Source of the DNA: Candidatus Levyibacteriota bacterium
GTDB taxonomy: Bacteria; Patescibacteriota; Microgenomatia; Levybacterales; UBA12049
Length of the DNA: 64,000 bases
NCBI GenBank assembly: GCA_016199085.1
Contig: JACQHJ010000002.1
Location: 31,000-94,999, forward strand
Direction of reading: 5' to 3'
Below, piece by piece: positions 10,491-44,028 of this stretch. A model generated the notes under the pieces. It was not told the DNA's origin and did no database searches. It saw only the letters and a program-made list of their open reading frames with translations. The position numbers and the translations under genes were made by a program. Each line of letters begins with the position of its first letter. Position 1 is the stretch's first letter.

Positions 10491-11720
10491 ATGAGGTACT
10501 CGGGTCTTTTTCCAAAAACTTTAAAGACAGCTCCAAGCGGGGCAGAGTCTCTAAATCACAAATTATTAGTTAGAGCAGGATACATTGATCAGTTAATGGC
10601 AGGCTCTTTTACGTTACTTCCCTTAGGTTTTAGGGTTGTAGAAAAGATTAAAGAAATCATAAGGGAAGAATTAAATAAAACTGGAGCCCAAGAGCTTTTA
10701 ATGCCCCTACTTCATCCAAGAGATATCTGGGATCAAAGCGGAAGATGGTCCAAGCCTGAAGTAAGAAAGATAATGTATCAGTTCAAGGATATTCATGATA
10801 AAGAGTTCGGACTCTCTTTTACCCATGAAGAAATAGTTATGGACCTTCTTTCTAAGTTTATACAAAGCTATAAGGATTTACCCGTAAAGGTTTATCATTT
10901 TTCAACCAAATTCAGAAACGAACCAAGAGCCAAGTCTGGGATTTTAAGAGGCAGGGAATTTATGATGAAAGATTTATACAGCGCCCATACCACAGAAGAG
11001 GATATGTATTTGTATTACAACCAGATAAAAGATATCTATCCAAAGATTTTTAAAAGAATTGGACTTGAGGTAAAAGTCGTTGAGGCTAGTGGGGGCGTAT
11101 TTACGCCTTCCCACAGCCACGAATTCCAGGTTTTATGTAGAGTTGGAGAAGATACGATCTTTTACTGTGATAAATGTGATTTTGCCCAAAATAAAGAAAT
11201 TTTTCAAGGACAAGAGGGGAGTAAATGCCCAAACTGCGATGGAAAAATACTTACCGCAAAATCCATTGAAGTTGGCAATATCTTTCCTTTGGGTACGGAT
11301 TTTTCAATAAATCAGAAAGTTTTCTATACAGATGCCAATGGCAAACAAAACCCAATCTGGTTTGCAAGCTACGGCATCGGTCCAACAAGGGTTTTGGGTA
11401 CACTGGCTGAGGTTTTTAATGATGAAAATGGTCTTATTTTTCCCAAATCGGTCGCCCCGTTTGATGTCCACTTAATTAGTCTATCTAAAACCGAAGAAGC
11501 CAAAAAAATCGAGGAAGAACTTGAAAAAAACGGATTTGAAGTTCTATATGATGATAGGGAAGTAACGGCGGGAGAGAAATTTGCCACGGCAGATTTGATT
11601 GGAATTCCGGTAAGACTGGTTGTTAGCGAGAAAACCGGCGGGAAAATTGAATTTAAACAAAGAAATAAAAAGGAAAGCCAGCTTTTAACTTTAGAAGAAG
11701 TTTTGGAGAAATTAAAATAA
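10491..11720 (+). CDS. proS: Prolyl-tRNA synthetase (short form)
   Basis: N-terminus MRYSGLFPKTLKTAPSGAESLNHKLLVRAGYIDQLMAGSFTLLPLG aligns with the ProRS N-terminus, class II motifs FRNEPR, GILRGREFMMKD; start moved to ATG 10491 from the track's 10356. Confidence 0.8.
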   Translation: MRYSGLFPKTLKTAPSGAESLNHKLLVRAGYIDQLMAGSFTLLPLGFRVVEKIKEIIREELNKTGAQELLMPLLHPRDIWDQSGRWSKPEVRKIMYQFKDIHDKEFGLSFTHEEIVMDLLSKFIQSYKDLPVKVYHFSTKFRNEPRAKSGILRGREFMMKDLYSAHTTEEDMYLYYNQIKDIYPKIFKRIGLEVKVVEASGGVFTPSHSHEFQVLCRVGEDTIFYCDKCDFAQNKEIFQGQEGSKCPNCDGKILTAKSIEVGNIFPLGTDFSINQKVFYTDANGKQNPIWFASYGIGPTRVLGTLAEVFNDENGLIFPKSVAPFDVHLISLSKTEEAKKIEEELEKNGFEVLYDDREVTAGEKFATADLIGIPVRLVVSEKTGGKIEFKQRNKKESQLLTLEEVLEKLK

Positions 11721-12149
11721 CCCAAAGACCTTAGCCCAGATTACGATATAGGCTCCGAAGAATATCAACCCTCCGATTATAAATAAAAGCGGTAACATAT
11801 TTAATTTTTTCTTTTGTGTATTGGTAACCGAGGTAGAAGGAGATTGGGCAAAAAGACCGGAAGGGGGTTCAACGGTTGTAGTAGCAAAGCTTTGACCTAT
11901 TGGCGCAGCTTTATTAAGCGCAGGATCTGGTGCTTGGAGATTTTGACTAGGCACCTGCGATGTTTGCATAAGAGGAGTATTCGGTTGCGGAGTTGGGTTT
12001 TCCTTGGGAGGTTCACCGGCTGGTTGCGGAGCATTAGGTGCAGGTTGAGGTTGCGGGTCAGCACTTTTAGGAGTAAAATTACTTCCCATTACTCTTTCAT
12101 ATGCTTCTCTTAATTTCGGATCCAAATCATTAACGTTTTTAGGATTCAT
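11712..12149 (-). CDS. Pro/Gln-rich tail-anchored membrane protein, compositionally atypical
   Basis: 145 aa; long low-complexity PQPQPAPNAPQPAGEPPKENPTPQP stretch and a single C-terminal TM helix LPLLFIIGGLIFFGAYIVIWA; overlaps the proS 3' end by 9 nt on the opposite strand. Confidence 0.4.
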   Translation of the reverse strand: MNPKNVNDLDPKLREAYERVMGSNFTPKSADPQPQPAPNAPQPAGEPPKENPTPQPNTPLMQTSQVPSQNLQAPDPALNKAAPIGQSFATTTVEPPSGLFAQSPSTSVTNTQKKKLNMLPLLFIIGGLIFFGAYIVIWAKVFGLF

Positions 12150-12208
12150 AGGCAGTATGAGACTATTATACCGTTTTTAACTAAACTCTTGTCAAGGGGA
12201 GTATATGA

Positions 12209-12463
12209 TTAGGCGCCTGCAGGTAGGGGTCTTCCTCTGGCGGTTAATTCCTGTCTTCTTAAAAATTTTTCAACTTGTCCTAATGCTTGAGTTGTATCCT
12301 TTAATTTAGGACATGTTGACGGAGTTTGTTCCCAAACCGTCTGGGGTTGGACACCGGGACATATCCCTAAAGCATAAAAATCACAAGTTGTAAGACCGGT
12401 TGCGGATTCACCTCTTGCAGCAGCGGCTCTTGCCGCTAATTTTAATAATTCACATTCAACCAT
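12209..12463 (-). CDS. Hypothetical small protein, compositionally atypical (Ala/Arg-rich, 4 Cys)
   Basis: 84-aa ORF between the Pro-rich ORF and the VanX-like gene; no motif. Confidence 0.3.
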   Translation of the reverse strand: MVECELLKLAARAAAARGESATGLTTCDFYALGICPGVQPQTVWEQTPSTCPKLKDTTQALGQVEKFLRRQELTARGRPLPAGA

Positions 12464-33212: not shown

Positions 33213-34328
33213 ATGGAGCAACCTGAAATCCCAAAAGATTTAGAAAAACCACAAATTATCCAAAATCCACAAAGGAGAAAAAACTGGATTATTAAATCTG
33301 CGTTTTTGGTTGTGGTTTTATTTTTGGGAGTATTTATTTATGTAAAACAAAATAGTGCTGTTAGATATGAGGAGATTACACAAAATCTTCCCCAAAATAG
33401 TGGAATACTTCCAACGCCAACACCTTTCTTATTTGAAGAAATGACGGTGCCTTTTCTAAGAAGAAAAACTTATGAAAGTAATCTTTCCGCGTTAGAAAAA
33501 GTTTCAGAAAATTCTAGCTATACGTCTTATCTAACGAGCTACAAATCAGACGGATTAAATATAAATGGACTTATTACAATTCCTAAGGGAAATACTCCTA
33601 TCGGAGGTTTTCCTGCAATTGTCTTTGTTCATGGATATATCCCTCCCAAAAGTTACCAGACACTTGTTAACTATTCTTCGTATGTAGACTATCTTGCAAA
33701 AAATGGATTTGTAGTTTTCAAAATAGATTTAAGAGGACATGCAAAATCCGAGGGAGATCCGGGCGGATCATACTACTCCTCAGACTATATAGTCGATGTT
33801 CTAAGCGCATATTCTGCACTGCAAGCTTCTGATTTTGTAGATCCTAAGGCAATCGGTCTTTGGGGACATAGCATGGCAGGAAATGTTGTTGCAAGAAGTC
33901 TTGCAGCAAAACCAGATATACCAGCAGTTGTCATCTGGGCAGGCGCTGTTTATACATATAAAGATTTCCAAGACTACGGAATCTCCGACAACAGTTATCA
34001 ATCACCACCGCAAGACACCCAAAGACAAAGAAGAAGAAAACTTCTTTTTGATACATACGGGCAGTTTAGTCAAGATTCAGAATTCTGGAAACAAATTCCG
34101 ATGACAAATTATCTAACGGATATTAAAGGAGCAATTTCCTTAAACCATGCAGTTAATGATAATGTTGTCGACATTAGATATAGCAGGGGACTTAGTGAAA
34201 TATTAGATAAGACAAATATAGTTCATGAGTTAAACGAATACCCAAGCGGAGGACATAATTTATTGGGGAATACTTTTGTTTTGGCAATGGATAATACAGT
34301 TGAATTCTTTAGAGAGAATTTAAAATAG
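33213..34328 (+). CDS. Secreted alpha/beta-hydrolase, paralog 2
   Basis: Similar architecture to 30117..31175: GFPAIVFVHGYIPP, GHSMAGN nucleophile elbow. Confidence 0.7.
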   Translation: MEQPEIPKDLEKPQIIQNPQRRKNWIIKSAFLVVVLFLGVFIYVKQNSAVRYEEITQNLPQNSGILPTPTPFLFEEMTVPFLRRKTYESNLSALEKVSENSSYTSYLTSYKSDGLNINGLITIPKGNTPIGGFPAIVFVHGYIPPKSYQTLVNYSSYVDYLAKNGFVVFKIDLRGHAKSEGDPGGSYYSSDYIVDVLSAYSALQASDFVDPKAIGLWGHSMAGNVVARSLAAKPDIPAVVIWAGAVYTYKDFQDYGISDNSYQSPPQDTQRQRRRKLLFDTYGQFSQDSEFWKQIPMTNYLTDIKGAISLNHAVNDNVVDIRYSRGLSEILDKTNIVHELNEYPSGGHNLLGNTFVLAMDNTVEFFRENLK

Positions 34329-34341
34329 GAAGATATATATT

Positions 34342-35151
34342 TTACTTCCTGTTATTAAGAGGCTGATCGCTAATAGGTCCCCAACCATTATGAGAATTTC
34401 TAACAGGAGTTCCTAAGTAGCCATCAGCCATTGGATGTGCATTTGCTTCTCGAAGGTGTCTTAAGAATTCTGGTACATTTGGTGGCGTAGGGTCGGATAT
34501 AACCTGTTTCCAGATTGATCTTTCAATCATGGTAACTGGTTGGACTATTTCGGTAAAATCTAATGTTCTATCTAATATGCCAATAATTTGAGGTATTGTT
34601 AGGTCTTTATAGGATGGATACATATTTCGTATCTCGCCAATCACAGCTAAGGTACGTCTTTTCACGGCTGGTTGTTGTCCATCTAAGCTTTCTAATGTTT
34701 TAATAAAACTATTACGTGTAAGAAATGCATTTCCTCTATTGCTTTCAACTTTTTTATCCAGTGTTTTTCCCTCAGCATCTTTAACCTTATCTTGATAAGC
34801 TTCCATGACAAACCTTTTATCAGTATATCCTCGAAACTCAAATCCCGTTTGGTCTTCATTTAATCTAACTAGCGCGAGAACTACCAGTCTTTGTCTTGAG
34901 CCATATAGCTTATGCTTTCCGTCCCCTGGTTGTTCGCCATCTCTTCTCGATATAGTATCTGAGAGTAGGCCAGAAGAATCTTCCTGAGGTGTAAAAACTG
35001 CTGCTTGCTCTAAAAGCCTATGTTGAGTGCGCCTTCTTTTTCTAAGTGGAGCGGGCGCTTCTCGTCTAAACACGTCTTCGGAAACTGGCAAAAATTTCAT
35101 TCTTCGCCTAATCTCTCTTCTTGATGAAGCTTCCGATGGAGCTCTTGCCAT
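34342..35151 (-). CDS. Hypothetical protein, compositionally atypical (Arg-rich N-terminus)
   Basis: 269-aa ORF convergent with the hydrolase paralog; no motif. Confidence 0.4.
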   Translation of the reverse strand: MARAPSEASSRREIRRRMKFLPVSEDVFRREAPAPLRKRRRTQHRLLEQAAVFTPQEDSSGLLSDTISRRDGEQPGDGKHKLYGSRQRLVVLALVRLNEDQTGFEFRGYTDKRFVMEAYQDKVKDAEGKTLDKKVESNRGNAFLTRNSFIKTLESLDGQQPAVKRRTLAVIGEIRNMYPSYKDLTIPQIIGILDRTLDFTEIVQPVTMIERSIWKQVISDPTPPNVPEFLRHLREANAHPMADGYLGTPVRNSHNGWGPISDQPLNNRK

Positions 35152-35344
35152 TTAATATTCTTATACAATCTATAAGCTTATCTGTCAATATAGATCTTAT
35201 CTTTACTCCATCTGATATAATTTATTGACTAATGGTTATCCGAAAAACCTCAATAACTAAAGAAACCAAAAACCCAGAAAAAATGTCATGATTTATTCGT
35301 CATTTGCGTTATAATTACAAAGAAAACGGAATAACTAAAAACTT

Positions 35345-37666
35345 ATGGCAGTAAGTAAAAAAGTTTCCAAAAACCTTCATTCTTTTAGGGAAATTACAGA
35401 CAGTATTCCCGCCATGGTTGCAATTTATAACATCCATACTGGTAAGTATGTTTACGTAAACCGCTCTATAAAGAGGCTTTTGGGATATAGCCCGGAGGAT
35501 TTTATTAAAAAAGGAATGCCGTTTGTTTCTTCCCTTGTTCATCCAGATGATATACCGAAAGTTGCCCTGGAAAACAAAAAAGCACTAAAAATGGCAAACA
35601 AGAAAGGATATAAAAAAGACAAAGACCCGATTAGCCATTTTGAATACAGAATGATGCATAAAGATGGTAAATACAGATGGCTTCATACCGACGGAAGCGT
35701 ATTTTCAAGAGATAAAAATGGAAAAGTGGAATACGTTTTGAACGCCTCCTTAAATATTACAAAGAGAAAAGAAATGGAGGAAAAATATATTGACCTGACA
35801 AAAAATCTTGAGGAAAAAATAAAAGAAAGAACTCAAAACCTCGAAAAAGAAGAGAAAAAATTTAAAACCTTGGTTGAGAACAGTTGGGAAGCGGTTTTAC
35901 TTGTAGATGCAAAAGCGCGTCTTTTATACGCAACTCCTTCAATAGTTAAGCTTTTTGGAAGAAAATTTGATGAATTTATGGGTGTAAGCGGAATAAAGTT
36001 TGTCCATCCTTTGGATATTACTAAGGTTCTAAAAAAACTTTCTACGCTTTTACTAAAACCAAACTCAAGGGTAACCTTGGAATCCAGAATAAAGCACAAG
36101 CTTGGACATTACAGATGGGTAGAAGCCACAGCCACGAACCTTTTAAAAGACCCCGATGTTAAAGCAATAGTCGTAAATCTTAGGGATATTACCGAAAGAA
36201 AAACTTCTGAGGAAAATTTAAAAACTGCTCTTAAGGATCTGCAGGATATGAAATATGCACTTGACCAGTCATCAATAGTCTCAATTACAAATAACAAGGG
36301 AATTATTGAATATGTCAACGATAGATATACTCAGATATCAAAATATGCAAAAAAAGAACTAATTGGAAAAACCCATCATCTTTTAAGTTCGAATTATCAT
36401 CCTAAGGAGTTTTTCCATAATCTTTGGAAAACAGTGTTATCAGGTAAGGTTTGGCATGGGGAAATCAGAAACAAGGCAAAAGACGGCAGTTTCTATTGGG
36501 AAGATACGACTATTGTTCCTTTTTTGGATCACCTTGGTAGGCCCAAGCAATTTATTGAGATAAAAAAAGACATTACAAAACAGAAGAAATTTTATGAGGA
36601 TCTTCAAACAAGCGAAGAACGTTTGAGGATTGCGATTGCAGCCGGAAAAATTGGAGTATGGGAATGGGATATTATCGAAAATAAAATAATCTGGTCGGAG
36701 AGAATCTATGAAATCCATGGTGTTAAAAAAGAAGATTTTAAGGGAACTATTGAAGAATATACTAAACTAATTTATCCAGATGACAGAAAGACAGTAGAGG
36801 AGGCAATTAAACAAGCTCTTTTGGGAAAAGAAACGTATTCATTAGAGTTTAGAGCTTATGGTCCCAACCAGTCTGTAATTTGGATACACACTAGAGCAAC
36901 GGTAGTGTTTGATGGGAAAAAGCCCATTAAAATGCTTGGTGCCACTTTTGAAATTACACAAAGAAAAGAGTTGGAGCAGAGAAAGGATGATTTTATTGCT
37001 CTTGCAAGCCACGAGCTAAAGACCCCTCTTACGTCGCTTAAGATATTCACACAAGTGTTCGAGCAACGTTTTAAAAGACAGGGGGACATACAAATGACGA
37101 CATACTTTAATGCAATGGACAAACAAATCGACAAACTTACCTCCCTGGTAAACAGTCTCTTGGATTCCTCAAGAGTAAGGCAGGGTAAGCTTTCTTATAA
37201 GAAAAATAAATTCAGACTCAAAGATTTAATCTTAGAAGTAGTGCAGAGCTTGCAGTCTATAACCAAAACACATAAAATCGAAGTTGTCGGAGACGACAAT
37301 AATGAAATAGTTGCCGATAGAGATAGAATTGGACAAGTGTTAATTAATCTGATTAATAACGCTATTAAATATTCGCCAAATGCGAACAGGGTTACTGTTT
37401 CTTTTAAGAAAATGGAAGATAATATGCAAACTAGCGTACAGGATTTCGGAGTAGGAATAAGTCAGGAAGAAAAAGATAGGATTTTTGAAAGATTTTCACA
37501 GGCAAGGAGCAGCCCTTTAAAAAGAACTTTTCCCGGACTAGGTCTTGGATTATATATTTCCAAGGAAATCATAGAAAGACATAATGGAAAAATTTGGCTA
37601 AAGACTAAAGAGAATAAGGGTTCTACCTTCTACTTTACTCTGCCTATTAAAAAAAACACAAACTGA
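35345..37666 (+). CDS. Multi-PAS sensor histidine kinase
   Basis: Four PAS/PAC-like modules, HisKA H-box LASHELKTPLTS, HATPase N-box LINNAIKYSP, G-boxes DFGVGI and GLGLGL. Confidence 0.85.
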   Translation: MAVSKKVSKNLHSFREITDSIPAMVAIYNIHTGKYVYVNRSIKRLLGYSPEDFIKKGMPFVSSLVHPDDIPKVALENKKALKMANKKGYKKDKDPISHFEYRMMHKDGKYRWLHTDGSVFSRDKNGKVEYVLNASLNITKRKEMEEKYIDLTKNLEEKIKERTQNLEKEEKKFKTLVENSWEAVLLVDAKARLLYATPSIVKLFGRKFDEFMGVSGIKFVHPLDITKVLKKLSTLLLKPNSRVTLESRIKHKLGHYRWVEATATNLLKDPDVKAIVVNLRDITERKTSEENLKTALKDLQDMKYALDQSSIVSITNNKGIIEYVNDRYTQISKYAKKELIGKTHHLLSSNYHPKEFFHNLWKTVLSGKVWHGEIRNKAKDGSFYWEDTTIVPFLDHLGRPKQFIEIKKDITKQKKFYEDLQTSEERLRIAIAAGKIGVWEWDIIENKIIWSERIYEIHGVKKEDFKGTIEEYTKLIYPDDRKTVEEAIKQALLGKETYSLEFRAYGPNQSVIWIHTRATVVFDGKKPIKMLGATFEITQRKELEQRKDDFIALASHELKTPLTSLKIFTQVFEQRFKRQGDIQMTTYFNAMDKQIDKLTSLVNSLLDSSRVRQGKLSYKKNKFRLKDLILEVVQSLQSITKTHKIEVVGDDNNEIVADRDRIGQVLINLINNAIKYSPNANRVTVSFKKMEDNMQTSVQDFGVGISQEEKDRIFERFSQARSSPLKRTFPGLGLGLYISKEIIERHNGKIWLKTKENKGSTFYFTLPIKKNTN

Positions 37667-37670
37667 CTTT

Positions 37671-38048
37671 ATGAAAAAAGTAATAATTATTGATGATGAT
37701 GAGAATATTTTGGAAGCCTTAAAAATATTGCTTGAGCATTTTGGCTTTAAGGCAGAGACTTTGATTAGGGACGGAGAAAGGCTTGCAAAAGCTATTAATA
37801 AACAGATTCCTGACTTAATTATTTTAGACGTTTTACTTTCCGGTGAAGATGGCAGAGTTGTTTGTAAAACATTAAAATCAACAAAGAAAACCAAAGACAT
37901 CCCCGTTATAATGATTTCCGCCCATCCAAACGCAAAACAGAAAGCATTGGAAATGGGAGCGGATGAGTTTATCGCAAAACCTTTTGATGTAGAGCACTTA
38001 TTAGACAAAGTAGAGTACTATACCGAAACAAAGTTAATAAATAATTGA
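37671..38048 (+). CDS. Receiver-only response regulator (CheY-like)
   Basis: 125 aa; IIDDDENILEAL...DLIILDVLL phospho-acceptor Asp context, no output domain; 4 nt after the kinase. Confidence 0.8.
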   Translation: MKKVIIIDDDENILEALKILLEHFGFKAETLIRDGERLAKAINKQIPDLIILDVLLSGEDGRVVCKTLKSTKKTKDIPVIMISAHPNAKQKALEMGADEFIAKPFDVEHLLDKVEYYTETKLINN

Positions 38049-38078
38049 CAAATAAATTTAAAACTGTATCATAAAGGT

Positions 38079-38285
38079 ATGATTGAGCCAAGAGCAGAAG
38101 GATCCAATGTAGTGCCTCTCGACTCACACCCAAGATTTAGAAGACAGGAAATCCCTCACCATCAGCCAGAGCCAGAAGCCCCGCAAAGACGCGGAATAAA
38201 AGCCATATTGGGAAGCTTAGGAAGGAGAGTTTTGGCAAATCTGGATCCCAACACATCTAAAAAGCCTGAAAATTCACCCTTCTAA
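38079..38285 (+). CDS. Hypothetical small protein, compositionally atypical
   Basis: 68-aa Arg/Pro/Glu-rich ORF; weak evidence. Confidence 0.25.
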   Translation: MIEPRAEGSNVVPLDSHPRFRRQEIPHHQPEPEAPQRRGIKAILGSLGRRVLANLDPNTSKKPENSPF

Positions 38286-38698
38286 TTTTTTAATTTCAAT
38301 TTTTTTAATTTCCTTCTTTCTTTTGCAAATTCATAAGCGTTCCTAACATAGGCAAAGACCCTTTCTATATCGTTTTCTTGGGTTATTTCAGTCTGTGACC
38401 ATGTTTTTCCGAAATCAAACTTTTCAAAACCATCATCTAAAGAATTGTTAAATCCGGTTGGGGAAAGAATTAAAAATAAAAGCAAAATATTGTTATCAAT
38501 TTCTTTTATCCCTCCAAAAAGGTTGTTTTCTCTATAAATACAAATCCAGCCAAAACTATTTGAAAAACGGATTGATCCCAATTCTTCAATCTGGGAAATT
38601 AACAAATCCTTAAGATCCATATGCTTAAGCTGATTATATACCATTGTTTTTGCTATAATCTGGCCCATGGTACTTGAGATAGGTAGAGAAGTTCCCAA
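38282..38698 (-). CDS. Hypothetical protein
   Basis: 138-aa ORF with host-like composition; true start may be an internal Met (e.g. 38644), which would avoid the 32-nt overlap with 38667..39233. Confidence 0.4.
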   Translation of the reverse strand: MGTSLPISSTMGQIIAKTMVYNQLKHMDLKDLLISQIEELGSIRFSNSFGWICIYRENNLFGGIKEIDNNILLLFLILSPTGFNNSLDDGFEKFDFGKTWSQTEITQENDIERVFAYVRNAYEFAKERRKLKKLKLKN

Positions 38699-39233
38699 GA
38701 CAGCAGCATTGTTTCCCTTGGGGGAAGATGTATCAAATAGAATTTTTTCTGCAATTAGCCTAGGTGAAAAAAGCTGGGAGGATGTTGTTAATGACCAAAC
38801 GGCAATAATGATGAGGGAAAATCCTTTTGCGCTGACTCATCTAGGCATGGTTGCTTCTGGCCGTGGGGGAATTTCCCAAGAAGGCTTTATGATTGGATTT
38901 TGTCTAATGTATGCAATACTAAGGGAAAAATCGGAAGAAGGCACAGTTCCAGAGCTGGTTTTTGATTTCGTAGAGGGATATGCAAAAGATAAGTATGAGC
39001 GCGAAGAGGCGTTTTTTGATGATCCCGATCTGGAATTTAACGAAATTGAATATCAAAATACGGAATCAAATATGTTTAGACTTTTAGAACGAGGTTTATA
39101 TTCCAGCTTAGATAAACATTTAAGCGCTCGGGGAGGCTTGTTTTTTGACTCAAGGTTTATCGGCATTGTTTATTCCTATTTTCTTTTTAGACAAGGACTT
39201 TCAAATCCAGCCAACTATTCAATACCAGCATAA
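38667..39233 (+). CDS. Hypothetical protein, compositionally atypical
   Basis: 188-aa ORF upstream of the HD/MazG pair; no motif. Confidence 0.35.
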   Translation: MVLEIGREVPKTAALFPLGEDVSNRIFSAISLGEKSWEDVVNDQTAIMMRENPFALTHLGMVASGRGGISQEGFMIGFCLMYAILREKSEEGTVPELVFDFVEGYAKDKYEREEAFFDDPDLEFNEIEYQNTESNMFRLLERGLYSSLDKHLSARGGLFFDSRFIGIVYSYFLFRQGLSNPANYSIPA

Positions 39234-39270
39234 TTTAATTATCTTGTATTTTTAAAAGCTCTGGGCTACA

Positions 39271-39903
39271 ATGCGCCTTATGAGGAAAACTAAAACCGAA
39301 AAGGGAAGAAAAGCAATTATTAATTTCTTATTTGAAGTTGGAGCTCTCTCCAAAACTCCAAGATCAGCCTTCTACTTTCTCGGAAGCGGTGGCCAATCGG
39401 TATCAGAACACATTACAAGAACTGCATATATAGGTTATGTCCTTTCTATTTTAGATGGAAAAGTAGACGGCGCTAAAATAATGCAAATGTGTCTTCTGCA
39501 CGATCTTGCTGAAACAAGAACTTCTGATTTAAATTATGTCCACCAAAAATACACAATATCTGATGAGTATAAAGCAATAGAAGATTTGGCAGCTACTCTT
39601 CCTTTTGGAGAAAAAATTTTAAAAACCCTCAAAGAATATGCTGCAAGAAAATCAAGGGAGGCAATTCTTGCAAAGGAAGCAGATCGTCTGGAATGGATAT
39701 TGACCCTAAAAGAACAGGTTGATGTCGGAAATACAAGGGCAAAAACCTGGATTCCCTCTGGTGTTAAACGGCTTGAAACAAAAATAGGCAAAGAGCTTGC
39801 CAAAGTAATTGTAAAAACTAATTCGGATGACTGGTGGTTTTCAAATAAAAAAGATAGTTGGTGGGTAACAAGAAACAAAGATATCCTCAAGAAGAGATTT
39901 TAA
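39271..39903 (+). CDS. HD-domain hydrolase, YfbR-like 5'-deoxynucleotidase
   Basis: SVSEHITRTAYIG (His of HD), LLHDLAETRTSDL (HD), EYKAIE match E. coli YfbR motifs ENVSEHS / YHDASE / EYKAIE. Confidence 0.65.
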   Translation: MRLMRKTKTEKGRKAIINFLFEVGALSKTPRSAFYFLGSGGQSVSEHITRTAYIGYVLSILDGKVDGAKIMQMCLLHDLAETRTSDLNYVHQKYTISDEYKAIEDLAATLPFGEKILKTLKEYAARKSREAILAKEADRLEWILTLKEQVDVGNTRAKTWIPSGVKRLETKIGKELAKVIVKTNSDDWWFSNKKDSWWVTRNKDILKKRF

Positions 39904-39912
39904 ATTAATTTA

Positions 39913-40308
39913 ATGAATAAATATCAAAAAATAGTTAAAAAATTTGAAAAAGATAGGAATTGGGGACAGTTTCATAATCCTAAAGATTTACTCTTGGGAA
40001 TAGTTGAGGAGGTAGGAGAGCTAAGAAACATTGTTAAGTGGGAACAGGATCCTGAAGTCTTAAAGAAAACACTTATTAAAAATAAAGACGAGGTTGCCGA
40101 TGGTATAGGAGATATTTTTTTCCTTTTAGCGCATTTGGCAAACAGTAGCGGTGTCGATATAGATAAGGCTGTTGCAACAACAATTAAAGATTTAAGAAAA
40201 CGATTTCCGGTCAAGGATTTTAAAGATAATCATGGTAATCGGTATATTGAAGGTAAAGATAAGAAAGATGGAGTAAAGAAATCCAGAAACTTCAAAAAAC
40301 GCTCCTAA
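39913..40308 (+). CDS. MazG-like nucleoside triphosphate pyrophosphohydrolase
   Basis: EEVGELRN and EVADGIGDIFF metal-binding EExxE/D motifs of the MazG/NTP-PPase fold; 10 nt after the HD gene. Confidence 0.65.
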   Translation: MNKYQKIVKKFEKDRNWGQFHNPKDLLLGIVEEVGELRNIVKWEQDPEVLKKTLIKNKDEVADGIGDIFFLLAHLANSSGVDIDKAVATTIKDLRKRFPVKDFKDNHGNRYIEGKDKKDGVKKSRNFKKRS

Positions 40309-40525
40309 AATTCCTCAATTGACATTTACATTTTATTAATATCCTAGCATTATCTCTAAAAGTAGAAACCTTTACAGCTTTTTGCAATAAATACTGGGTA
40401 CCAATTATTATCCTTACTTGCAATGGGAGCGGTAATAGGAGTAATCTAAGTTTTCAAAAAAACAGAACTTATTCTTGAAATTTTTCGTGTTTCATTATGA
40501 TAGCTGGGGACATTGATTCAGTAAG

Positions 40526-41059
40526 TTATATGGTAAAACGATAACGGGTCATTTTTAATCCTGGATATTTTTCTGCTTTTCCTTCTCTTTCTAATCTTTC
40601 CCAGATAGCTAGATGTGGGGGAAGTTCCTGATAAGAACTGGATCTTAGTGGCATGCCAAAAAACATATGGGAAAGAGCGTTCATTACCAGTAGTCTTTGT
40701 CTGCCCAGGCCTTTTCTTCTAAGTTTTTTTGCAGTAGAAGAAAAGCCTATAATCGGAAGCCCAATTTCGTCGATGTGGTCGGGTTGTATATTTCCATTAC
40801 CAGTAGGCCTATCGTTTTTATCAAAATCTTCGATGTGAATTTTTCCACCAAATCCTCCTGTTACGCCAAGAGTTTTACTGCCATCCGCATAACTTATCGC
40901 AAAAGCTACACTACCTTTTTTATGCTTTATGGTTTGTATTAATGAGTCGGGTAAAACTTCCGGACTTATTTCTGTAATAGTACCACTTGGGAAATGCGCC
41001 GCAAAAACTTCCGGGTTTAGGCTTAACTCATCTATCGTTGGTCCAGGCGTTTCCAACAT
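40526..41059 (-). CDS. Putative GNAT-like protein, compositionally atypical
   Basis: LRRKGLGRQRLL resembles GNAT motif A (R/Q-x-x-G-x-G/A); otherwise no match. Confidence 0.3.
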   Translation of the reverse strand: MLETPGPTIDELSLNPEVFAAHFPSGTITEISPEVLPDSLIQTIKHKKGSVAFAISYADGSKTLGVTGGFGGKIHIEDFDKNDRPTGNGNIQPDHIDEIGLPIIGFSSTAKKLRRKGLGRQRLLVMNALSHMFFGMPLRSSSYQELPPHLAIWERLEREGKAEKYPGLKMTRYRFTI

Positions 41060-41127
41060 AATAACGGATTATATCATTATGGAATTGATATATTGACAAA
41101 ATGCCCATTTTAATGTACATTTATATT

Positions 41128-41397
41128 ATGACACAGGTAATACCAGTAACAGAAGCTAGAAGAATACTTCTTAGTCTTGTAGACGAAATAAATGAGGCAT
41201 ATACAAGAGTAGATTTAACTAAAAACGGTAAGGTTAAAGCTACTTTAGTTTCTCCTGACTATCTTGATTCTCTAGAGGAGACAATTTATAGTCTTAAAAA
41301 CTCTTACTCAGATATTAAGCTTTCTGAAAAAGAATTAAAACTAGGTAGGTTCTTAACATTAGAAGAAGTTAAAAAGAAATATAGCAATAAACAATAG
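41128..41397 (+). CDS. Phd/YefM-family antitoxin
   Basis: MTQVIPVTEARRILLSLVDEI N-terminus typical of Phd/YefM; followed by a RelE-like gene. Confidence 0.7.
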   Translation: MTQVIPVTEARRILLSLVDEINEAYTRVDLTKNGKVKATLVSPDYLDSLEETIYSLKNSYSDIKLSEKELKLGRFLTLEEVKKKYSNKQ

Positions 41398-41403
41398 CTT
41401 CAA

Positions 41404-41661
41404 ATGTCAGCCAAAAATCTACACATATCTCAAAGCGTTGATAAAAATCTATCAAAACTCCCAAAACATATACAGACAAGAATAATTTCATCCTTTGATA
41501 AAATTATTCAAAATCCAGTTTCTGGTATTAAGTTACATGGAGAGCTTAAGAATTACTATAAATTTAGAGTTGGAGATTACAGAATAATATATAGCTTTAA
41601 TGCAAAAGAAAGTTTAATACAAATAGTTAAAATCGAACATCGTCAAGGTGTATATAAATAA
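41404..41661 (+). CDS. RelE/ParE-family toxin
   Basis: 85 aa; YKFRVGDYRIIYSF...IVKIEHRQ pattern of RelE/ParE. Confidence 0.7.
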   Translation: MSAKNLHISQSVDKNLSKLPKHIQTRIISSFDKIIQNPVSGIKLHGELKNYYKFRVGDYRIIYSFNAKESLIQIVKIEHRQGVYK

Positions 41662-41912
41662 ACCCTAATGTCATCTATACCACGGAGCAAATTTTAGCCT
41701 CATGATTGACTTCTAATATAATTAGCTTTATATGAACCTATCAATCGGGACGGCAAGAGCGCAAATCAACATTTTAGCTTCCCGTTTGTTGTAAAAATTA
41801 AGCTTCCTCCTCCGAGAATTGCAAAGGAAATATCTCCTCTACGGCTATAAACTAGTATTCTTCCAGAAAATATAACCTTGACCTTCAAGAAAGAAAAAGT
41901 TAGAATTCGTGC

Positions 41913-42881
41913 ATGGGTTTTCCTTATCATGAATTAATTCCCGCTGCTGTGCTCTTGGATAATCCGGGACTGACTAAGGAAGAATTTAGTAGAAAACTGC
42001 AAGCTACTCATTATTCATTAGGCGTAGCCAGCAGGAGCGCTTCTTGGGATTCGTATACAGAAAGTGAAAGTTTTACTCCTGAAGAACTGCCAATAATTCT
42101 AGGACTTAGTTATTCAAGTGCTTTCACAGAGTTTCAAAAACCAAGACGGGATGTAAACGGAATATTTCTTCACCCACCAACCATGCGAATTGTTTTCCAA
42201 AATACAGACAAAGGTTTAGCCGCGGAAAGATATGAAGTAACAACTCATGTGGCAAACGCATTAGGAGAAATGGAACAAAAATCTATTTCAAGTCGAAGAA
42301 ATATTCGCGCAGGAGAAGCCATAACTTTCATTAATGCATATTTAGAAGACGTAGATTATCTAGTAAGTTCAGTTGCGAGAAAATCTATTCAAGGGCAAAG
42401 AATTACGCCCCAACTTCACACTGAAAGTTTTGCGACATTTGAGGACTTATACAGAGTATGGCCACAATTTAAGCCAGAGAGCATGTACGATTTCTCTACC
42501 ACTCAAGGAAAATTTAATTTTGTATTTGGCGGAGGTAATTTTATATGGAAACAAGTTGATGGGAAATTTTATTTGGATCAGTCCACATTTGATCGCATAC
42601 CTGCAGGATTTTTGGTAAATGAAGATTTAAATTTAGGATACGCTGATCTAATTTTAACAGCCGAAGCAATAAGGCAAAGTGCTTGGAAATTATTGTCTTA
42701 TAGAGGATTATTTTATTTAAGAGATTTTCTTACTGCATTTCCAGATTCAAGAGCAAGATATGAAAGAGCAGTTTGGGATTCTCATACCTCCCTGTTTGCT
42801 AAAAGAAAAGGGATGACAAACACAGAGTTTCTGAGAATGAGACTTTTCCCCCTCTCTGGTGTTAGCGTAGAAGAAAAATAG
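41913..42881 (+). CDS. Hypothetical protein, compositionally atypical
   Basis: 322-aa ORF; no SD; no motif. Confidence 0.4.
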   Translation: MGFPYHELIPAAVLLDNPGLTKEEFSRKLQATHYSLGVASRSASWDSYTESESFTPEELPIILGLSYSSAFTEFQKPRRDVNGIFLHPPTMRIVFQNTDKGLAAERYEVTTHVANALGEMEQKSISSRRNIRAGEAITFINAYLEDVDYLVSSVARKSIQGQRITPQLHTESFATFEDLYRVWPQFKPESMYDFSTTQGKFNFVFGGGNFIWKQVDGKFYLDQSTFDRIPAGFLVNEDLNLGYADLILTAEAIRQSAWKLLSYRGLFYLRDFLTAFPDSRARYERAVWDSHTSLFAKRKGMTNTEFLRMRLFPLSGVSVEEK

Positions 42882-42930
42882 TCAAACTCATCTTCTTCCA
42901 GAAGACATAGACCTCTGCTATAATTGCCTC

Positions 42931-44028
42931 ATGTTAGGGATTGGAATTGTCGGTCTTCCAAATGTTGGAAAATCAACGCTTTTTAACGCGCTTTTGAAAA
43001 AACAGCAGGCTTTGGCTGCAAACTATCCCTTTGCCACAATTGAGCCAAACATAGGAGTTGTTGCTGTCCCTGATGAAAGACTAACCAAGCTTGCCGAAAT
43101 AACAAGTAAAGAGGAGAAAATGGCAAGTCTTCCCCCCATTAAGCCGGCTACTGTTGAATTTGTCGATATTGCAGGACTTGTTAAGGGAGCCAGTGAGGGA
43201 GCAGGACTTGGCAACAAATTCCTTTCTCACATAAGAGAGGTTTCGGTCATAGCCCACGTTGTAAGAAGTTTTGAAGACGATAATGTCATAAAAGAAGGAG
43301 CAGTTGATCCAAAATCAGACTTTGAAACAATTAGAACCGAACTTCAGATTGCAGACTTACAAACTCTGCAAAATCTCAATGAAAAAGCCTTAAGAACAGA
43401 TCCTGTTAAAAAATCCGTCGTCGAAAAACTAAAGGCAGTTTTAAATGAAGGAAAAAATGCATTTGAAATAAAGCTTTCCGAGGAAGAAAGTATTTCAATT
43501 AAGGAATTAAGTCTTTTAACTGCAAAAAAAGAAATTGTTGTTTTAAATATTTCAGAAGGGGATTATAATCCCGAGTCAATTGCAAACATTGTTAGTAAAT
43601 ACTCGGACCTTCTTAAAATTGATGGTGAAAAACTTGTCGTAATCTGTGCAAAAATAGAATCTGATTTAGCATCGCTTTCCGAGGATGAACAGAAAGAATA
43701 CTTAAAAAGCTTAGGAATTGATAAGTCAGGTCTTGAAAGACTCATTCAAAAAGCATACCTAGAACTTGGTCTTATTTCTTTTTTAACAGCCGGAGTTAAG
43801 GAGGTAAGGGCATGGACAATTAAAAAAGGTTTTACAGCTTCCTTGGCAAGCGGAGAAATTCATACGGATTTTATGAAGAAATTTATAAAAGCAGAGGCCG
43901 TATCCTTTGAAAATTTTGTAGAGTATGGTGGATGGAAAGGCGCAAGGGAGAAGGGAAAAGCAAGGCTTGAGGGAAGGGATTATATTGTTAATGATGGAGA
44001 TATTATTGAGTTTAAGATAGGGACTTGA
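42931..44028 (+). CDS. ychF: Ribosome-binding ATPase YchF
   Basis: [18 protein letters not shown]-loop, TGS-type C-terminal domain, 365 aa. Confidence 0.85.

Follow-up and report, generated by a model that had tools for sequence, protein, structure and literature searches.

The stretch from 38079 to 42881 of a 64,000-nt window (the whole stretch of DNA that was analysed), taken from a metagenome-assembled genome of Levybacteria (candidate phyla radiation, CPR; Patescibacteria), encodes an HD-domain phosphohydrolase (HD), a MazG-type pyrophosphatase (MazG) directly behind it, a Phd-RelE toxin-antitoxin (TA) pair and several hypothetical open reading frames (ORFs). A first-pass annotation had read this as an accessory or defence island, and the question that the locus raises is whether the two enzymes belong to an anti-phage system or have come to lie side by side in some plainer way. 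Our answer is that the locus is largely ordinary and that its real feature is a small TA hot spot beside a highly conserved HD_3 phosphohydrolase; quite probably it consists of a core HD_3 gene and a recombination-prone TA slot, with MazG juxtaposed in this genome alone and no recognised anti-phage system.

Relatives were sampled as 19 loci carrying HD (L001-L005, the exact-protein contexts; L006-L018, 13 genome loci; and L042; 250 kb in total) and 22 loci carrying MazG (182 kb in total). The closest relative of the window was L001, while the HD proteins of L006 and L007 were 92% and 78% identical to that of the window. Across the 19 HD loci identity ranged from 51 to 95% and synteny was kept, the neighbourhood in relatives running through transketolase, PDDEXK, DNA_alkylation and abhydrolase genes to HD, YchF and a ketoacyl synthase (KAS). 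Between the window and L001 the HD proteins were 95% identical with a ratio of nonsynonymous to synonymous substitution rates (dN/dS) of 0.05, the corresponding values for YchF being 96% and 0.09. A wider search returned 1232 HD homologues at E <= 1e-5, mostly 60-75% identical, across Patescibacteria; the top 120, 62-95% identical, were annotated as Levybacteria, Paceibacterota, Saccharimonadia and other Patescibacteria, and no close viral relative appeared in a single-protein viral scan. Given its conservation in the 19 loci, the retained synteny and the low dN/dS, HD is a core, syntenic, vertically inherited and strongly constrained gene, and not island cargo.

The pairing with MazG was another matter, in that none of the 19 HD loci carries a MazG homologue and none of the 22 MazG loci carries HD. 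Among the loci compared the pairing is unique to this genome, and the two genes are not the conserved operon that had been proposed. The first-pass annotation had also named the opposite case, a pair universally conserved at this locus as house-cleaning enzymes, and half of this was found: HD is a conserved housekeeping gene here, but the pair is not conserved. We regard the HD-MazG arrangement as an opportunistic, lineage-specific juxtaposition and not as a conserved module.

Directly behind HD the sister genomes part company. In a blastn comparison of the window with L001, homology ended at 39907, 4 nt past the HD stop codon, and resumed at 41898, 15 nt before the hypothetical ORF o322; in place of window positions 39908-41897, L001 has 516 unrelated bp with a 68-aa ORF. 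The slot of L006 is filled by MazE, a PemK/MazF toxin and an SDR-like gene, the GC content of this cargo being 0.44-0.46 against 0.35 for the locus; in L007 the same MazE is accompanied by a truncated MazF and by a PIN-domain (VapC) toxin with a putative antitoxin. Since the window, L006 and L007 hold different TA families at the same place, the HD-YchF stretch of ~2 kb is a TA hot spot, with three type II TA families in three sister genomes. The proposal of an accessory or defence island was thus right about a variable segment of ~2 kb, in which 39908-41897 has no counterpart in L001, but HD is core, the hypothetical ORFs o138, o188 and o322 are lineage-resident, and there is no recognised defence system. 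An HD gene, a MazG gene, a TA pair and a few hypothetical ORFs can mimic a defence island when sequence alone is read, and comparison shows a core enzyme beside a TA hot spot.

The composition of the locus was equally plain. The GC content is ~37% across the window (mean 0.367), and 38-43 kb shows no compositional anomaly. The large AT-rich gaps reported earlier came down to two gaps of more than 70 nt, one of 217 nt with a GC of 0.30 and one of 251 nt whose GC of 0.37 equals the window mean. Similarly, the hypothetical ORFs that had been called atypical have GC contents at third codon positions (GC3) of 0.25-0.30, as do neighbouring core genes, and only the TA pair is distinct (0.16-0.19). 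An Rfam scan of 37.9-43.1 kb gave one chance-level miRNA match and nothing else.

A block that occurs in a single metagenome-assembled genome invites the suspicion that the HD-MazG junction is a chimera of assembly or binning. However, the sequence to either side of the block (HD to the left, o322 and YchF to the right) is collinear with that of L001, L006 and L007, the GC and GC3 of MazG and o177 match the genome, and the same slot varies in three independent assemblies; we consider such an artefact extremely unlikely.

The absence of the entire block from L001, with MazG only 1.1 kb from the TA pair, could also be taken to mean that MazG, o177 and Phd-RelE arrived as one mobile cassette, MazG modulating the TA pair much as in the E. 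coli analogue mazEFG, in which MazG follows mazEF. The block is not one cassette, because its content is heterogeneous in GC3 (0.27-0.28 for MazG and o177, 0.16-0.19 for Phd and RelE) and because an o177 orthologue occurs in L042 near HD without MazG or TA. In addition, a gene on the opposite strand lies between MazG and the TA pair, the MazG orthologues of the 22 loci have neither Phd nor RelE homologues nearby, and a search for traces of insertion yielded no integrase, no convincing flanking repeats and nothing left over from the slot content of L001, L006 or L007. Arrival as a single cassette is, on this evidence, unlikely.

Recombination is suggested by the synonymous divergence (dS) between the window and L001, which is mosaic gene by gene over 33213-44028 (YchF 0.29, HD 0.50, o138 0.75, abhydrolase 1.21, o322 1.32 and o188 1.51) and which therefore points to exchange between diverged Levybacteria lineages. 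The locus is probably a mosaic in which a core gene adjoins a small slot prone to recombination, with no dedicated system.

What the core enzyme does was approached through its family. The HD protein matched Pfam HD_3 (PF13023) at 86.1 bits (cut-off 22.5), with lower scores for the YfbR-like (33.4 bits) and HD (28 bits) families, so that the original assignment to the HD fold was sound. Its closest solved relatives in a PDB search were AF1432 of A. fulgidus (E 2e-12) and human HDDC2 (1e-9), YfbR being distant (1e-4). The statement that it matches E. coli YfbR almost motif for motif was correct insofar as SVSEH/NVSEH, LLHDLAE/MYHDASE and EYKAIE/EYKAIE align, with 29% identity over 127 aa, but AF1432 and HDDC2 are closer, and identity as a YfbR equivalog was rejected, the score against NCBIfam NF003009 being 30.9 bits with a cut-off of 122. 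Defence HD triphosphohydrolases of the dGTPase/SAMHD1 type are multi-domain enzymes of roughly 430-500 aa. Membership of that group was likewise rejected for this protein of 210 aa with a single HD_3 domain and no PADLOC match.

Aligned to the residues of YfbR, metal site A of the HD protein comprises H47, H77, D78 and D138, site B comprises E81 and D86, and the arginine is R31; all seven are invariant in an alignment of 30 HD homologues. The roles of the two metal sites and of the intermediate-stabilising arginine have been defined by structural comparison of DatZ, HDDC2 and YfbR (PMC8065100), and, judged by these residues, HD carries a complete two-metal HD phosphohydrolase site. Activity as a (d)NMP nucleotidase has been measured for an HDDC2-type homologue, the T. 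brucei HD 5'-nucleotidase (PMC5098729), and by analogy with it and with YfbR, whose substrates are dNMPs, the HD protein probably dephosphorylates (deoxy)nucleotides as a 5'-nucleotidase.

Several further features of this group were observed. Across the classes of Patescibacteria the HD_3 orthologues are conserved to an unusual degree, with 51-76% identity where YchF shows ~60%; beyond the catalytic set, R83, N88, H91, Q92, Y94, E141, E148, D151 and W188 are invariant, and the C-terminal tail is Trp-rich (DDWWF...WW) and lies outside the YfbR alignment. A protein of 174-175 aa with an N-terminal transmembrane helix and no Pfam match is encoded directly 3' of HD in L002 (8672-9196), L004 (8666-9193) and L042 (164-691), and is absent from that position in the window. 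An HD gene 60% identical to that of the window sits on a contig titled 'Nanoarchaeota archaeon' (L009), and the records of L006, L007, L011 and L013 are titled 'uncultured Gammaproteobacteria bacterium' although the loci are clearly Levybacteria- or Patescibacteria-like; mislabelling, mis-binning or inter-domain transfer is the likely cause of these titles. In the literature on CPR nucleotide salvage we found nothing specific to the HD protein, and an orthologue group that spans the Patescibacteria, with a conservation near that of YchF, could be relevant to nucleotide salvage in reduced genomes.

The MazG fold assigned to the neighbouring protein was confirmed by two Pfam models, MazG (29.1 bits, cut-off 22) and MazG-like (29.4 bits, cut-off 27). 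The metal-binding motif of the family is EXXE-(12-28)-EXXD, and the translation contains E33-V-G-E36, 23 residues, and E60-V-A-D63. The best PDB match was DCTPP1/RS21-C6 (E 1.2e-12), and some Joint Genome Institute (JGI) annotations give homologues the putative name 'dCTP diphosphatase'; DCTPP1 is the closest solved relative, but dCTP specificity would not be transferable at this identity. Orthologues elsewhere (55-81% identity) are solitary genes. Some adjoin an HhH-GPD glycosylase, MGMT, a second MazG and UvrB/UvrD; the neighbours of others are Pol I, a HAD hydrolase and RuvA, in further cases NUDIX, GNAT and glyoxalase genes, or unrelated genes. Such DNA-repair and housekeeping neighbours are what one would expect of an enzyme that sanitises the nucleotide pool. 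The GC3 of the gene (0.27) equals that of its neighbours, viral relatives in the single-protein scan were only 30-38% identical, and both MazG and o177 have counterparts of 100% identity among the annotated proteins of a Candidatus Levybacteria metagenome-assembled genome. By its family matches, then, MazG is a common DCTPP1-like house-cleaning NTP pyrophosphohydrolase.

Although the pairing is not conserved, the two genes may well be expressed together in this genome. A TATAAT-like box lies 6-8 nt before the ATG of o68, o188, o177, Phd, o322 and YchF, and none is found for HD or MazG; since these two lack the -10 box adjoining the ATG that their neighbours have, MazG is probably co-transcribed with o188 and HD from the o188 promoter, for which TGCTATAAT ends 7 nt before the o188 ATG. 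MazG would convert non-canonical (d)NTPs to (d)NMPs and PPi, and HD, if it resembles YfbR and the T. brucei HDDC2 homologue in its activity, might convert (d)NMPs to nucleosides and Pi. Because they are probably co-transcribed the two may act here in sequence, and such a relay from NTP to NMP to nucleoside is chemically plausible. HD itself would serve nucleotide turnover or salvage.

Given this chemistry it was not unreasonable to consider that HD and MazG form a two-enzyme dNTP-depletion anti-phage module within a defence island that includes the TA pair. The two genes share a strand, the 9 nt that separate them contain no predicted terminator, and the pair borders on a variable slot in which TA pairs gather. 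There is also published logic for an NTP hydrolase working with a phosphatase, a 2026 preprint having described a PUA-Calcineurin-CE protein that together with a HAD phosphatase depletes dNTPs and aborts infection, with rare variants in which MazG replaces the calcineurin domain (PMC12871103), and MazG domains figure among predicted but unvalidated defence domains (PMC13092281). On the other hand, HD is the strongly constrained core gene described above, the pair occurs in 0 of 41 related loci, and the MazG orthologues keep company with repair and housekeeping genes. PADLOC gave no match among the 10 ORFs of the locus and only generic HATPase and receiver-domain matches among 10 further neighbours, with none at system level in the 20 genes. 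HD and MazG are both single-domain proteins with no sensor or regulatory domain, and Pfam identified no PUA or HAD domain, and hence no such partner, in the ORFs of 38079-42881. Finally, an unregulated drain from dNTP to nucleoside would be self-toxic in a salvage-dependent organism. A depletion module thus seems distinctly unlikely. It is very unlikely, too, that the placing of MazG behind HD created a new (d)NTP-to-nucleoside unit in the TA hot spot, resembling the PUA-Calcineurin/MazG-HAD pair, for which o188, o177 or o322 might supply the trigger.

Several points nonetheless weigh against a core gene beside a TA slot with a chance neighbour. The 9-nt HD-MazG spacing could be functionally selected and not accidental, and the PUA-Calcineurin/MazG-HAD system is an anti-phage precedent for just such a pair of NTP hydrolase and phosphatase (PMC12871103). 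PADLOC-DB dates from 2023 and represents mostly non-CPR genomes, which makes its silence weak evidence. The sample of relatives is limited to the 19 HD and 22 MazG loci, many of them short contigs. The promoter calls are consensus matches, no commoner than in shuffled sequence. And the small HD phosphohydrolases DatZ and OxsA are triphosphohydrolases (PMC8065100), which weakens the case for a monophosphate substrate of HD.

The features of the locus are collected in Table 1. Every ORF named in the first-pass annotation was present in the ORF list with the same coordinates.

Table 1. Features of the Levybacteria locus, in window coordinates
Feature	Coordinates	Strand	Assignment
o68	38079..38285	+	68-aa small ORF, coding status uncertain
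o138	38282..38620	-	re-annotated as 112 aa from Met27 of the longest ORF; lineage-specific hypothetical
o188	38667..39233	+	fast-evolving hypothetical; probably first gene of an o188-HD-MazG transcription unit
HD	39271..39903	+	HD_3-family (AF1432/HDDC2/YfbR-type) metal-dependent phosphohydrolase, 210 aa, core gene
Hypervariable slot	39904..41912	.	HD stop codon to o322/YchF; content swapped between sister genomes
MazG	39913..40308	+	single-domain all-alpha NTP pyrophosphohydrolase, DCTPP1/RS21-C6-like
o177	40526..41059	-	lineage-specific hypothetical; GNAT label unsupported
Promoter-like TTGACA-17-TACATT + overlapping palindrome (ATGTACAT core)	41093..41126	+	candidate TA autoregulatory operator
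Phd/YefM-family antitoxin	41128..41397	+	probable start Met10 of the 41101 ORF
RelE-type toxin, ParE/RelE superfamily	41404..41661	+	Pfam, PHROG and PDB matches
o322	41913..42881	+	uncharacterised family containing a winged-helix-like part

The Phd/YefM-RelE module proposed for the slot was borne out, both Pfam families scoring above cut-off with support from PHROG and PDB. The antitoxin matched PhdYeFM_antitox (36 bits, cut-off 29.8) from residue 12 of the 41101 ORF and a PHROG antitoxin, and a -10-like box ends 6 nt before 41128, its probable start. The toxin matched ParE_toxin (41.5 bits, cut-off 23) and the PHROG RelE-like toxin (4e-20), with archaeal RelE PHS013 (1wmi), Rv2866 and RelE as its best PDB matches; its gene starts 6 nt after that of Phd and has a GC3 of 0.16 against ~0.27 in neighbours. 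The genes and their family matches thus point to a genuine type II pair. A palindrome (I22, 41107-41126) overlaps the promoter-like element upstream of Phd, and palindrome and promoter together make a candidate autoregulatory operator. The pair would be autoregulated, with an mRNA-interferase toxin neutralised by a labile antitoxin, and would represent an addiction module, selfish or stabilising, that has settled in the hot spot.

Turning to the hypothetical ORFs, o138, o188 and o322 are real, lineage-resident genes under purifying selection, since they occupy the same positions in sister genomes with dN/dS values of 0.19-0.34. Homologues of o138 have 111-113 aa (77% identical in L001, 62% in L006 and 61% in L042), all start with MDLKDLL/MELNDLL, and show a dN/dS of 0.19-0.30; no significant family match was obtained. 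A 32-nt antisense overlap with o188 had been described, and it exists only for the longest, TTG-started ORF: the homologues in L001, L006 and L042 start at the Met corresponding to 38620, and o138 and o188 are therefore divergent with a 46-nt spacer. The o188 protein is 50% identical in L001 and 47% in L006 (dN/dS 0.27-0.34), is absent upstream of HD in L007, L002 and L004, and had no Pfam, PDB or PHROG match. Positional counterparts of o68, 61-65 aa long, occur in L001, L006 and L007 and share a C-terminal G-x-x-GKL-x-x-F-ARRVLA-like motif; its dN/dS against L006 is ~0.95 and it has no family match, and its coding status is doubtful. Searches of NCBIfam and PHROGs gave no match for the hypothetical ORFs, and PDB sequence searches gave none for o322, o177 or o188.

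The description of o177 as GNAT-like could not be sustained. Neither o177 nor its homologue had a Pfam match at E <= 10, hhalign against a 3-sequence GNAT profile returned a probability of 0.4%, and the resemblance to GNAT motif A is limited to an R-x-x-G-x-G-like string, RRKGLGR. Among 5.8 billion proteins o177 has one homologue, P0242 (64% identical, dN/dS 0.16), which lies on L042, 5 kb from the HD orthologue and with no MazG or TA nearby. An AlphaFold2 model of o177 from a 2-sequence alignment reached a mean predicted local distance difference test score (pLDDT) of 41.6, too poor for a fold search.

The o322 protein, which has a copy in L001 at 11170-12147, is one of a family that comprises 219 clusters at 50% identity, and 46 members of this family gave no Pfam domain. 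The AlphaFold2 model of o322 is confident (pLDDT 93; predicted template modelling score, pTM, 0.85), and matches in PDB and BFVD are confined to the winged-helix part; o322 thus represents an uncharacterised family with a confident predicted structure and no solved match past that part. Conserved features are an N-terminal MG-x-PY and a C-terminal GYTDLILTAEAIK...AWKLLS motif. R308 is the sole near-invariant polar residue, which argues against an enzyme. The neighbours of the homologue P0245 are unannotated, and the single-protein viral scan found no close viral relative. An imperfect 26-nt direct repeat, 81% identical and absent from relatives, flanks o322 (41849-41874 and 42884-42909), and is probably due to chance.

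The surrounding genes are ordinary housekeeping genes, among them a DNA-alkylation repair enzyme, an Exo_endo_phos nuclease, alpha/beta hydrolases, a C39 peptidase, a PAS histidine kinase with its response regulator, YchF, a ketoacyl synthase, an amidase and SSB. Upstream, o269 (34342-35151, minus strand) has a very Arg-rich N-terminus and no family match; it diverges fast, being 43-48% identical in relatives, and its length in L007 (7665-9332, minus strand) is 555 aa. In L001 (8358-8752, corresponding to window 35345-38048) a deletion has removed most of the PAS histidine kinase gene (773 aa) and of the response regulator gene, joining the initial 82 codons of the former to the final ~57 codons of the latter, and the two-component pair is therefore dispensable in the L001 lineage. 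The SDR-like gene of the L006 slot (11401-12390, 329 aa), with a GC of 0.46 in a 0.35-GC genome, looks like a recent foreign acquisition.

The TATAAT-like hexamer 6-8 nt before the ATG also precedes o269. In all seven genes (o68, o188, o177, Phd, o322, YchF and o269) it occurs with no Shine-Dalgarno sequence and often with a TTGACA-like -35 box 16-17 nt upstream, as in the TTGACA-16-TATCAT box ending 6 nt before the o68 ATG. These leaderless-type boxes, at 38045-38078, 38640-38666, 41060-41127, 41878-41912, 42905-42930 and 35152-35200, suggest that leaderless mRNAs may be widespread in this Levybacteria genome.

Set beside known systems, the HD protein shares with AF1432, HDDC2, the T. brucei enzyme and YfbR a single HD domain of ~200 aa in which the residues of metal sites A and B and the arginine are kept. 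It differs from YfbR in its 29% identity and failed equivalog match, and in belonging to a Patescibacteria-wide group with extra invariant positions and a Trp-rich tail. MazG has the all-alpha MazG domain and EXXE...EXXD motif of DCTPP1/RS21-C6 and of bacterial single-domain YpjD-type MazG proteins (PDB E 1e-12), but is distinguished by its length of about 120-130 aa, a Lys-rich C-terminal tail, and an HD neighbour in this genome only. Like the PUA-Calcineurin-CE/MazG-HAD system, HD-MazG places an NTP-directed phosphoesterase beside a nucleotide phosphatase, and two-step chemistry is conceivable for it; but that system depends on a PUA sensor and on a HAD partner of its own, whereas HD-MazG is without both and its phosphatase is the core HD.

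The TA pair resembles RelBE and Phd-YefM modules in having the antitoxin first, a 6-nt gap, proteins of 89 and 85 aa and a palindrome overlapping the promoter, and its toxin is closest to archaeal RelE and M. tuberculosis RelG/Rv2866. It differs in joining a Phd-family antitoxin to a RelE toxin, and hybrid pairings of this kind are common.

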